This document shows positions 1-8,291 of a stretch of DNA of 8,291 nt, in pieces. The first letter of the stretch is position 1; each line of letters begins with the position of its first letter. The stretch is taken from the IMG/VR virus record IMGVR_UViG_2667527595_000001. The stretch is one strand, 5' to 3'. This stretch comes from a virus (lineage: Monodnaviria > Loebvirae > Hofneiviricota > Faserviricetes > Tubulavirales). Below the pieces are notes generated by a model. It was not told the origin of the DNA and did not search any database. It saw only the letters and a program-made list of their open reading frames with translations. The position numbers and the translations under genes were made by a program.

Positions 1-2
1 GC

Positions 3-739
3 TCAGGTGGTGGCAGTTCCGGTGGTGGTAACCCGGGCGGCGGCATACCAGTGGTGGTTCAGGTTCTGGCTCCGGTGGTTCATCCGGTAGCGGTGGCTCC
101 GGCTCGGGTTCCGGCGGCTCATCCGGCAGTGGTGGTTCAGGTTCTGGCTCCGGTGGTTCATCCGGTAGCGGTGGCTCCGGCTCGGGCTCCGGCGGTTCAT
201 CCGGTAGCGGTAGTTCAGGTTCAGGATCCGGTGGCTCATCCGGCGATGACAATGGCTGGCTTGATGGTATTTTGGGCTGGTTAAAAACAATATGGGTGTC
301 AGTGAATGATTTAAATAATGCTTTTTCTGTTTCTCAGGCTGATATGAATAATGCATTAAATTCACTGGACAATGGTATTAAAGATATTAGTCAGAATATA
401 GCTTCTTCTTTGCCTGATGGGGATTTCCCTTTAGGGGAGCTTTCGCATTACTTGCCAGGACAGGGAAGTGAGAGTCATGATAATAACAATTGGCTTACAG
501 TTAATATTGACAAACTGGTAAATACAAATAATGGAACTGCTCTTCCTTTTATTTTACAATTTAGCTTTGATCTTCCGTTGATTGGCGCTATTAATTTCAA
601 GATTGATACAAGCCATTTTGCAAAAGCTTATGACGATTATGTTCGTTCTGTTCTTGAATATGCTATTTATATGATAACCATGTTACGCGTTTTTGTTATT
701 TCTCGCCGTACATTATTTGAACGTGAGGTAAAACTCTGA
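3..739 (+). CDS. Minor coat/adsorption protein pIII, C-terminal part only (5' end outside window): Gly/Ser-rich linker plus C-terminal assembly/anchor domain; reading-frame discontinuity near nt 30-50
   Basis: Frame 2 is open from nt 32 to the TGA at 737-739 and encodes (GGSGSGSGGSSGS)n followed by ...GDDNGWLDGILGWLK...FDLPLIGAINFKIDTSHF...VLEYAIYMITMLRVFVISRR, with a hydrophobic anchor near the C-terminus like Ff pIII. Upstream of nt 47 the glycine-rich reading (SGGGSSGGGNPGGGIP) is in frame 3, and frame 2 has a TAA at 29-31. The ORF-track start at 272 (TTG) is only the first start codon in the open frame. Confidence 0.8.
53..245 (+). repeat. In-frame 78-bp tandem repeat (about 2.5 copies) encoding the Gly/Ser linker of pIII
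   Basis: ggtggttcaggttctggctccggtggttcatccggtagcggtggctccggctcggg... recurs at 53 and 131 (period 78 bp = 26 codons), with a partial third copy from about 209. Confidence 0.8.
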
Positions 740-1098
740 TGTGGGCCATTTTAGGTGCTTTTTTTGTTGATGTTGTTTTAAAATCACTACGTTTCATTGC
801 AGGAGTTATCGGTGATAAAGCTGTTGCATGGGCTAAGCTCCTTTCTTATCTTGGTCTTTGCTACACTTCATATTATGCTCTTGTATCTGCCGTCAATTTT
901 ATTATTCGTCAAATCTCCGATGTTAATAAACTCGATGTTATTGTAGTTGCATTCAGTTACCTTCCTTTAAATATTCAGTACTGTTTTAATATCATCCTCC
1001 ATGTTCAATTTATTTCATACATATATCTTTATAAGGATAGAGTGTATCGATTGGTTTATGATTTATTTAAATCAAATGGGCTTAATGTTGGCAAGTAA
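739..1098 (+). CDS. Minor coat protein pVI-like (119 aa, hydrophobic)
   Basis: ATG at 739 overlaps the pIII stop (TGATG) with GAGGT upstream. The product is small and strongly hydrophobic, and sits at the gVI position between gIII and gI. Assigned by size, hydrophobicity and synteny only. Confidence 0.7.
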   Translation: MWAILGAFFVDVVLKSLRFIAGVIGDKAVAWAKLLSYLGLCYTSYYALVSAVNFIIRQISDVNKLDVIVVAFSYLPLNIQYCFNIILHVQFISYIYLYKDRVYRLVYDLFKSNGLNVGK

Positions 1099-1112
1099 TT
1101 TTGCGGGGGTAA

Positions 1113-2318
<1,206 letters not shown>

Positions 2319-2319
2319 G

Positions 2320-3066
<747 letters not shown>

Positions 3067-3095
3067 TATCTTCATGACTGAAAAACAGCACTTAA

Positions 3096-4313
<1,218 letters not shown>

Positions 4314-4366
4314 GTGCCGACCGGGATTATCAGGACGCGGCATCTCAGTTTACCTACCACAACGTC

Positions 4367-4399
4367 AGTGCGCATAATGTGACACGCGTTATGTTGAAA
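4367..4399 (+). other. dif-like XerC/XerD recombination site (putative attP arm 1) with an extended 11-bp central region
   Basis: AGTGCGCATAA (10/11 to the XerC arm of E. coli dif, GGTGCGCATAA) - tgtgacacgcg - TTATGTTGAAA (9/11 to the XerD arm, TTATGTTAAAT). The dif consensus is quoted from memory. Confidence 0.45.
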
Positions 4400-4436
4400 A
4401 GGCCGCTGCGATACTCTCCACCGCAGCGGCCTTTTT
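4397..4436. terminator. Rho-independent terminator hairpin after gIV, possibly bidirectional
   Basis: Perfect 10-bp GC-rich stem ggccgctgcg (4401-4410) / cgcagcggcc (4422-4431) with an 11-nt loop, followed by TTTTT (4432-4436) and preceded by AAAA (4397-4400). Confidence 0.75.
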
Positions 4437-4460
4437 ATACATAACGTCATTGTGCGCACT
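4434..4460 (-). other. Second dif-like site in inverted orientation (putative attP arm 2)
   Basis: Reverse complement of 4434-4460 reads AGTGCGCACAA-TGACG-TTATGTATAAA (XerC-like arm 9/11, XerD-like arm about 8/11). 4365-4379 is complementary to 4448-4462 at 14 of 15 positions (one T/G mismatch). Confidence 0.4.
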
Positions 4461-4465
4461 GAACC

Positions 4466-4621
4466 TTAAAGGATTTCAGTGTCCTTACTTAGTTTTTTGT
4501 GTATGGTCATCACCAACGGTGGGACAAGCGTTATCAGGCTGAATATTGTCATGCCTGTGATGCTGCCAACAACGAAATGCTTTATCAGCAGGTCAAGGAT
4601 TAAGTCACTGGTTATCTGCAT
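4466..4621 (-). CDS. Hypothetical small hydrophobic protein (51 aa), hand-translated and not in the supplied ORF track
   Basis: Minus-strand ATG (plus-strand CAT 4619-4621) preceded by AAGGAAAT with a short spacer; translation MQITSDLILDLLIKHFVVGSITGMTIFSLITLVPPLVMTIHKKLSKDTEIL, stop at 4466-4468. It lies 63 bp downstream of the minus-strand regulator gene on the same strand. Weak evidence. Confidence 0.2.
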   Translation of the reverse strand: MQITSDLILDLLIKHFVVGSITGMTIFSLITLVPPLVMTIHKKLSKDTEIL

Positions 4622-4684
4622 ATTTCCTTGTTTAACTTTTCCTTTGATCTTTCCTGGCCTGTTTGTTTGACGTTGGGAAAGGGA

Positions 4685-4885
4685 TCACATTGCCTTTTTT
4701 TTCTTAAGTTCTTCCTGACTTACCATATCTATTGCTGCGTCTTTTGCGTAGTGATCTATCATGTAAGACAGTACTTCGGTCCATTTTATGCTCCTTCCTA
4801 TCTTTTGACTTGCATCAATAGCTAATCTTTCTAGCTTTAGATACTTCTCGTTTGGCACGTTATAACTCTTTCTTTTTTCAGCCAT
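4685..4885 (-). CDS. Small basic protein (66 aa), putative transcriptional regulator/repressor (possibly ribbon-helix-helix-like), divergent from the replication module
   Basis: Minus-strand ATG (plus CAT 4883-4885) with AAGGGGG SD about 8 nt upstream (plus 4893-4899 reverse-complemented). Product MAEKRKSYNVPNEKYLKLERLAIDASQKIGRSIKWTEVLSYMIDHYAKD... has a basic N-terminus followed by helix-like segments. Function inferred from size, charge pattern and divergent position, analogous to RstR of CTX-phi. Confidence 0.5.
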   Translation of the reverse strand: MAEKRKSYNVPNEKYLKLERLAIDASQKIGRSIKWTEVLSYMIDHYAKDAAIDMVSQEELKKKKAM

Positions 4886-5018
4886 TATTTAGCCCCCTTT
4901 TTTGTATTTAGCCATCATGTACTCTAGAGCACTTGAGCAAATGTTGTTAATACATCTTGTGTTCATGATGTTTTTTGAGTATGTTCTTTTTTGTCTTTCA
5001 TCATGAGGACATGAGGTC
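4886..5018. promoter_or_regulatory. AT-rich divergent promoter/operator region between the minus-strand regulator and the + strand replication operon
   Basis: Direct repeats TATTTAGCC at 4886-4894 and 4905-4913 flank the regulator's RBS; imperfect 14-bp palindrome GTACTCTAGAGCAC at 4919-4932 (12/14); recurrent TCATGA/CATCATG motifs around 4915-4921, 4964-4971 and 4998-5005. Confidence 0.45.
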
Positions 5019-7260
<2,242 letters not shown>

Positions 7261-7290
7261 CTGAATTTTTAACATTGAGGAGTCTGATTT

Positions 7291-7716
7291 ATGAATCAAA
7301 TTTACGACAGTTTTCCGTTTCCTTCCCCTGAGGGTTTTACCGCAGGTATGACAATGGCGGGATATTTTATTCACGCCACTGTCATAAATGATGAGGAGTT
7401 AAAACCCACGGGTTCTCATTATAACCCTGAGGCCAAACCCAAATATGCCATTGTTATTGCCTATCCGTATGAGGACCGAAAATTAAAAGTCCGCCGTGAG
7501 GAGCATGAGCGCTTTTCCTGTACTGAGGAGGATTTTAAATTTTTTAATTCATGTCCTGATTTGCAGGGCAAATCTGTTTATCTCACGGTGGATGTTAACT
7601 CATGGTCGACAGGCTCAGAACGTCATGGTGTCTGGTATCGTTTTATTTCCGGCTCCATGAAACGTTTTGACGGTCAGCCGCTGGGTGCACTGCCCGCAGG
7701 TAAAGAAAAAGGCTGA
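7291..7716 (+). CDS. Putative ssDNA-binding protein (gV position), 141 aa
   Basis: Strong SD GAGGAG at 7277-7282, 8 nt before ATG 7291; lies between the replication gene and the coat-protein cluster as gV does in Ff phages. Function assigned by synteny only; the sequence is longer than Ff gV. Confidence 0.45.
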   Translation: MNQIYDSFPFPSPEGFTAGMTMAGYFIHATVINDEELKPTGSHYNPEAKPKYAIVIAYPYEDRKLKVRREEHERFSCTEEDFKFFNSCPDLQGKSVYLTVDVNSWSTGSERHGVWYRFISGSMKRFDGQPLGALPAGKEKG

Positions 7717-7720
7717 TGAT

Positions 7721-7861
7721 ATGTCTGACGCTGATTTTCTGAACTTTGTTTTATTTGCTGCGCCTGCAATGATTTTATTTTCTTCAGGTTTTGGCATCGG
7801 AATAAAACTGATTCGCGCCTGTGACTCACAAAGCATTACTGTTCAGCGTTATTATGACTGA
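7721..7861 (+). CDS. Small hydrophobic protein (46 aa), candidate minor coat protein (gVII/gIX position)
   Basis: ATG at 7721, 4 nt after the gV stop; product MSDADFLNFVLFAAPAMILFSSGFGIGIKLIRACDSQSITVQRYYD has one hydrophobic segment. The ORF-track entry 7667..7861 is an upstream extension. Confidence 0.45.
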   Translation: MSDADFLNFVLFAAPAMILFSSGFGIGIKLIRACDSQSITVQRYYD

Positions 7862-8024
7862 ATTTGATTTCAGCGGTGTTTTATCCGCACTGAATTCTGG
7901 CGTACAGGACGGGGAGCTTTACTGGTCCGTTCTTTATGTCTGGATTGTCTGCTGGCTTCTTGGCTTTGGTCTTGGTGTTATTTTCACTCTGGTCTGCCGG
8001 ATGTTCAGTGATGCTGTTAATTAA
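7854..8024 (+). CDS. Small hydrophobic protein (56 aa), candidate minor coat protein (gIX/gVII position)
   Basis: ATG 7854 overlaps the previous stop (ATGACTGA); product MTEFDFSGVLSALNSGVQDGELYWSVLYVWIVCWLLGFGLGVIFTLVCRMFSDAVN has one transmembrane-like segment. The ORF-track start at 7821 is GTG. Confidence 0.45.
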   Translation: MTEFDFSGVLSALNSGVQDGELYWSVLYVWIVCWLLGFGLGVIFTLVCRMFSDAVN

Positions 8025-8030
8025 TTTTAA

Positions 8031-8291
<261 letters not shown>

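Follow-up and report, generated by a model that had tools for sequence, protein, structure and literature searches.

The reading frame of gene III (gIII) at the start of the window, by which we mean the whole 8,291-nt stretch of DNA that was analysed, is broken within its first 50 bases. Based on our analysis, with a probability of about 0.78 the frame break is an assembly or consensus artefact, arising in the GGC-rich tandem repeat in the first 50 bases of a draft contig. This reading is favoured because the anomaly is positioned at a contig end, because an N falls inside the deviant stretch, because the stretch is unique and because an intact in-frame copy of the same region is present on the same contig. 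Most likely, the frame break is not a property of the prophage. The truncated pIII of a defective prophage, which was put forward in the earlier note, is not supported on these same four grounds, which bear out the other explanation offered there, a sequencing or assembly error in the repeat.

Reading frames and position of the break

The window corresponds to nt 1-8291 of the draft contig CDRQ01000487.1 (denoted by L006; 9470 nt; E. coli, GCA_000941195.1). The match was found by exact-protein look-up of the gIV product, with the gene coordinates being equal to those of the window. Nucleotide 1 of the window is the first base of CDRQ01000487.1, and the break occurs 45 nt in. The features around the break, with related loci denoted by their numbers (L001, L004, etc.), are as follows.

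1-34, plus strand: (GGGSS)-type part of the gIII linker at the contig start, in frame 3, identical to L001, L004, L005 and the 3' copy of L006
29-31, plus strand: TAA in frame 2, blocking frame 2 upstream of the break
32-38, plus strand: heptamer C_CCG_GGC, formally X_XXY_YYZ, in frame 3, created by A35G
35-50, plus strand: deviant stretch with the frame break, comprising A35G, the G missing between 45 and 46, the ambiguous base 47 and G50A
47, no strand: placeholder 'A' for the N of the deposited record, where relatives have T
49-243, plus strand: 2.5 copies of a 78-nt (26-aa) Ser/Gly unit in tandem array, with a sub-period of 39 nt
50-739, plus strand: gIII in frame 2, remaining linker and C-terminal domain with the hydrophobic anchor (…YAIYMITMLRVFVISRR…)
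282-284, plus strand: TAA closing the frame-3 read-through

In frame 3, nt 3-50 read SGGGSSGGGNPGGGIP, a glycine-rich stretch of 16 residues; the earlier note had seen this reading rightly but had ended it at nt 47. Past the break, frame 3 continues as VVVQVLAPVVHPVAV..., which is rich in Val, Pro and Ala and is ended by the TAA at 282-284, and frame 2 gives SGGSGSGSGGSS... from nt 50, followed by the whole C-terminal domain, 165 residues, with the stop at 737-739. Both of these readings, as well as the TAA at 29-31 in frame 2, had been described before and are seen in the translation.

From the alignment with the intact homologues, the frame break is the absence of one G at nt 45/46, where the canonical ...GGCGGCGGCAGTTCCGGTGG... 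is replaced in the window by ...GGCGGCGGCA-TACCAGTGG... and, likewise, the canonical ...AACCCAGGCGGCGGCAGTTCCGGTGGTGG... by ...AACCCGGGCGGCGGCA-TACCAGTGGTGG.... This comparison confirms and places the 1-nt deletion in the repetitive linker that had been suspected. The window further carries the substitutions A>G (nt 35), T>A (nt 47) and G>A (nt 50) relative to the intact homologues, and the site of the break is the left edge of the 78-nt array. As written, the window thus has no single uninterrupted reading frame for pIII, the frame being broken at nt 45/46, and if the break is taken literally across the contig wrap the product has 299 aa.

The long open frame-3 reading after the break is stop-free by composition, as in shifted frames of the Gly/Ser linker, and because of this its length is not evidence of coding; its database homologues are only 'partial' contig-end miscalls. 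Specifically, a search of about 5.8 billion protein clusters with the frame-3 tail returned five such miscalls, none of them joined to a correct-frame N-domain.

Identity of the gene and gene order

The remaining genes in the window are arranged as follows.

739-1098, plus strand: gVI, 119 aa, with an ATGA-type overlap with the gIII stop, in the same place in all relatives, with a weak match to PHROG 1944
1116-2318: gI, Zot family (PF05707)
3105-4313: gIV, Secretin (PF00263)
5260-7260: replication endonuclease of the P2-gpA type, 666 aa (PF05840)
between the endonuclease and gVIII: small ORFs
8049-8291, plus strand: gVIII, major coat protein, 80 aa

The broken gene is gIII, as the earlier note had called it, and its product is of the ordinary inovirus type of minor coat (attachment) protein pIII/g3p. 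This is seen from the gene order, from the N-terminal domain of the full-length homologue, from the linker and from the C-terminal domain. The gVIII-gVI interval in the complete-genome relatives L001-L003 is occupied by one ORF, 451-482 aa in length. In the full-length homologue, a signal peptide precedes a Phage_Coat_A domain (PF05357; E 6.6e-9; score 35.8 bits, cut-off 20.8). This domain lies outside the window and is found further along the contig, at L006 8352-8967, as well as in L004. The N-domain of the homologue matches by tblastn the gIII of IKe, I2-2 and If1 with 40-44% identity over aa 122-195. The Gly/Ser linker occupies window 1-243, and by inspection of the translation the C-terminus consists of a hydrophobic anchor and then basic residues, ...SVLEYAIYMITMLRVFVISRRTLFEREVKL*. 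The 3' part of the gene is identical in DNA to the gIII of L004, and its C-terminal part matches PHROG 17820.

The element resembles the Ff phages M13/fd/f1 and the phages IKe, I2-2 and If1 in the order gVIII-gIII-gVI-gI(Zot)-gIV(secretin), and resembles the Inoviridae pIII proteins in having a Gly/Ser repeat linker between the N- and C-terminal domains and a C-terminal hydrophobic anchor. It differs from them in that the C-terminal domain here has no Pfam family, in that the EGGGS/GGGS repeats of the Ff linker are replaced by (GGGSS)n and then 26-aa SG units, in that the replication protein is a 666-aa P2-type Phage_GPA endonuclease, and in that it lacks DNA similarity to the deposited phages (megablast gave no match). 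The window also has no Rfam match, and a search of the GTDB representative genomes with gI, directed at a tie to YpfΦ/CUS-1, found no relative.

The replication protein is thus of the P2-gpA type (PF05840), not of the Ff gpII type. In L007 (2131-2832), a contig from the assembly that holds L004, an identical gIV is followed by a Rep_1 (PF01446) gene, which suggests an exchange of replication modules between related, co-resident inoviruses.

The contig and its wrap-around copy of the linker

The window and L006 differ solely at positions 47, 2090 and 5341, with N in L006 and A in the window, and the bases of the relatives at these positions are T, G and C, respectively. It is noted that the 'A' at 2090 (in gI) and that at 5341 (in rep) stand for N in the deposited contig and are not real substitutions; these two Ns may mark heterogeneity between collapsed prophage copies.

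At the end of the window, L006 proceeds from gVIII through a 60-nt spacer to a gIII start at 8352. From 8352 to 9297 a single frame runs through signal peptide, N-domains and entire linker and includes the canonical GGCAGTTCCGGT, the canonical junction being located at L006 8988-9031. Moreover, L006 9095-9297 is identical to window 49-251, giving a 203-nt perfect overlap. Joining the two ends via this overlap yields a pIII of 477 aa without internal stop, or of 451 aa with the repeat number of the window, and the reconstructed 451-aa pIII is the same as that of L004 and of L005 save the residue altered by G50A. Because the N-terminus and linker of gIII are found past gVIII in one frame with the canonical junction, L006 wraps once round the phage: it runs once round a filamentous prophage of about 9 kb (tandem copies or circular replicative form), with the self-overlap in the gIII linker. 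The earlier note had named, as what would tell against a break in the gene, a different path by which the N-terminal domains reach the frame-2 ORF, and the wrap-around of L006 is essentially such a path; it comes from the other end of the same contig.

A side observation concerns the 3' end of this contig. At L006 9298-9470 the last gIII linker codons (…GGCGATGACA) are joined to the interior of a chromosomal T6SS ImcF/TssM gene, with 99.4% identity of this part to the gene of ATCC 11775, and the sole motif common to both sides of the join is TCATCCGGC. The join of the linker to the T6SS gene is probably a chimeric mis-join, being implausible as a phage junction.

The gIII linker is a site where draft assemblies break. 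Other draft assemblies, L019, L021 and L024 from IMG/VR, break in or near the linker and end 100-511 nt past the junction, and the 'partial' wrong-frame gene calls also mark assembly breaks near it.

Comparison with relatives

The closest relative, L004, is the contig CCBY01000485.1, which was found via its identical gI. Compared with L004, window 1-2089 differs solely at 35, 45/46, 47 and 50, with nt 51-2089 being 100% identical. The clustering of four differences in 16 nt, followed by 2,039 nt without any, has P of about 2e-6, and the occurrence of all four within the first 50 nt has P of about 3e-7. The window has no further disrupted gene, and compared with L001 the sole other coding indel is an in-frame one of 9 nt in gI. 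This gI deletion (window 1980-1995; 400 aa, vs 403 aa in L001) is common to L004 and one of the two L005 copies; it is therefore a natural allele rather than an error.

The canonical 44-nt junction is invariant, base for base, in 19 other copies, which comprise 12 genome loci, the 3' copy of L006 itself and 6 IMG/VR contigs. In 5,426 complete E. coli genomes the deviant junction does not occur, and exact-pattern scans for it, with or without the missing base, gave 0 occurrences in IMG/VR, the GTDB representatives and the JGI metagenomes. A looser pattern, allowing any junction of 5-9 nt, recovered canonical in-frame copies only in IMG/VR and none in the JGI metagenomes. Exact-sequence look-ups of the 299-, 477- and 451-aa forms of pIII gave no match, but as the L004 pIII used as a positive control was likewise unmatched, these look-ups carry no information. 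Among the related gIII genes, 15 of 15 are intact, with lengths of 425, 451, 472, 482 and 497 aa, and the length differences consist of whole repeat units or of the linker type; variation in the copy number of the array gives pIII of 425, 451 and 477 aa.

A donor for the deviant 16 nt, as would be expected for gene conversion or template switching, was sought in 153 kb of related loci, and none was found, a trivial 8-mer in gVIII aside. Among the deviant bases, only G50A agrees with the internal repeat units (CAGTGGTGG).

Variation among the related prophages

In complete genomes the prophage occurs as tandem copies with a unit of about 8.7-9.4 kb (L001 293-2293 and 9032 onward; L015 and L016), with up to 16 linker-related places per genome, and an IS110-family transposase adjoins several copies (L002 and L003). 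The gIII genes of L001 (3385-4740), L003 (3335-4750) and L002 (3130-4575) have a near-identical C-terminal domain. The second N-terminal domain differs in L003, and L002 has a linker of the (GGGSS/GGGNS)n type where the others have 26-aa SG units. These differences indicate that the receptor-binding part is exchanged as a module among related prophages.

The UPΦ prophages of Enterobacterales (PMC7307601), which we compare here by their published description, are similar to the present element in being dif-type tandem filamentous prophages of E. coli. They are of a different lineage, close to I2-2 and IKe, and have a length of about 7.5 kb. It was reported that tandem filamentous prophage copies are not resolved by short-read assemblies and that one UPΦ member has an early stop in gene III (PMC7307601). 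Variation in the pIII repeat number similar to that seen here has been described for IKe and for the UPΦ prophages.

Two further variable regions are noted. Between gI and gIV, window 2332-3066 contains a 339-nt tandem repeat with 2.2 copies and 96% match, of which about 5 copies are present in L004 (6164-7915) and about 2 in L001. Mechanical ORFs occur on both strands of this repeat, some of them being 74-83-aa hypothetical proteins in RefSeq, and the repeat has no Rfam or Pfam match. In the gap between gIV and rep, window 4625-5254 shows no homology to the strain 100416 prophage (L001), which is otherwise 98-99% identical. The ORFs in this region are one of 66 aa on the minus strand (4685-4885) and one of 82 aa (5019-5267), with no significant Pfam match, and the region may be a variable regulatory or immunity module.

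Origin of the frame break

We now consider how the frame break would have arisen if it is an artefact. The anomaly at nt 35-50 is no further than about one k-mer or read length from the contig end and lies at the edge of the 78-nt array, with an N at 47 inside it, and the canonical junction is found elsewhere in the same assembly. The linker would not have been resolvable by the assembler, the contig would have broken there, and the deviant 16 nt would have come from erroneous or mis-placed reads. Two candidate causes may be considered. The first is that of sequence-specific Illumina errors triggered by GGC. Three of the four changes (nt 45-50) are within 6 nt downstream of GGCGGCGGC, and the GGC motif is reported to trigger Illumina miscalls in runs that start no more than about 10 nt downstream of it, with GGC-repeat genes being badly affected (Nakamura et al. 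2011, PMC3141275). The position of deviant bases right after GGCGGCGGC is similar to this error type, with the differences that the key change here is a deletion rather than a run of substitutions and that A35G is upstream of the motif; the similarity is a resemblance rather than a demonstrated cause. The second candidate is that reads of other repeat units were mixed in at end extension or gap filling. The change G50A makes the first unit resemble the internal units and would fit such read mixing. With either cause, the pIII encoded by the real phage would be intact, with a length of 451 aa (477 aa with the other repeat number), and would be identical or near-identical to those of its closest relatives.

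Several observations are not readily explained by an artefact. The first 34 nt of the contig are free of error, which would not obviously result if the sequence were just the low-quality tail of a read. Most Illumina errors are substitutions, whereas the decisive change here is a deletion, and A35G precedes the GGC run. Positions 2090 and 5341, both N, lie in unique sequence without GGC context and may reflect real differences among co-resident copies that the assembly collapsed, leaving room for a real variant copy. In addition, the start of the contig exactly 34 nt before the first variant also fits a genuine de Bruijn branch (k=35) that is supported by many reads.

These observations lead to another scenario, which we consider unlikely, namely that the frameshift is real in one of at least two prophage copies, in tandem or elsewhere, and was produced by a single complex mutational event. 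In this scenario, the event at the left edge of the array, for example slipped mispairing or error-prone repair, would give rise to A35G, the 1-nt deletion and G50A together, and the product would be a 299-aa pIII fragment, consisting of the signal peptide, the N-domains, a partial linker and a 78-residue nonsense tail, without the C-terminal anchor and assembly domain. Tandem or multiple related prophages are indeed the rule in the lineage: the rep of L001 is found at 293 and again at 9032, a single genome holds both L015 and L016 at a distance of 9.35 kb, the number of places per genome is 2-16, and L005 has two non-identical copies. The Ns at 2090 and 5341 may be polymorphism between collapsed copies, the canonical and the deviant junctions are both in the same assembly, the contig starts where a graph branch would start it, and a gIII with an early stop is reported in the related prophage group (PMC7307601). 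However, a real event would have had to place 3-4 changes in 16 nt, compared with at most 2 candidate differences in the other approximately 8.9 kb, and to do so in a stretch that also contains an ambiguous base (N47). Gene conversion would require a donor for the stretch, and none is present in the 153 kb of related loci. Ordinary slippage in this linker proceeds in clean in-frame 78-nt steps, as indicated by the lengths of 425, 451 and 477 aa, the junction is otherwise invariant in the 19 copies, and no protein joining a pIII N-domain to the frame-3 tail is found among the approximately 5.8 billion protein clusters.

It should be mentioned that even if the mutation is real, functional pIII would be provided in trans by the canonical copy that the contig also carries, and the strain would not necessarily be non-productive. 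The statement in the earlier note that the frame answer determines whether the element is infectious is thus not upheld: an intact copy in the same assembly could complement the broken one, and 'non-infectious' would not follow even from a real break.

The recoding that had been mentioned as a less likely reading can be set aside as highly improbable: the break would be real and would be bypassed by low-efficiency -1 slippage on C_CCG_GGC (nt 32-38), producing full-length pIII, yet the relatives are single-frame, the heptamer is not conserved and downstream structure is lacking. A -1 slip at 32-38 would pass the frame-2 TAA (29-31), which is upstream, and would continue in frame 2 as ...GGGNPG-RRHT-SGGSGSG..., and the heptamer has the formal X_XXY_YYZ pattern in the correct frame at the sole place where a -1 shift would work. 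Few pIII molecules are required per virion, so that inefficient frameshifting could suffice. By contrast, efficient bacterial -1 sites have an A/U-rich YYZ (A_AAA_AAG type), and to our knowledge C_CCG_GGC is not among the heptamers known as efficient in bacteria. All 19 other copies have CCCAGGC in place of the heptamer and a single-frame pIII, so that neither the two-frame layout nor the slippery site is conserved in the relatives. No stimulatory RNA structure for -1 frameshifting is found downstream, the 92 nt at window 39-130 folding with -30.6 kcal/mol compared with a shuffle mean of -35.7 (z +1.58) and being matched or surpassed by 194 of the 200 shuffles, and the deviant stretch, with its N, is at a contig end. 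If recoding did occur, it would represent a newly arisen, non-conserved recoding site in the attachment gene of a filamentous phage.

Implications

The Gly/Ser repeats in the gIII linker are sites of breaks and mis-joins in draft assemblies, and frame anomalies a few tens of bases from a contig end are not to be called pseudogenes. Ambiguous bases that are silently written as 'A', as at 47, 2090 and 5341 in the window, lead to false variants.

The C-terminal domain of pIII is required for particle release and stability, as is known from Ff biology. Because of this requirement, if the frameshift is real, the affected prophage copy would be unable to terminate assembly or to infect. The evidence taken as a whole points to the element being an ordinary, probably intact and widespread filamentous prophage of E. 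coli.
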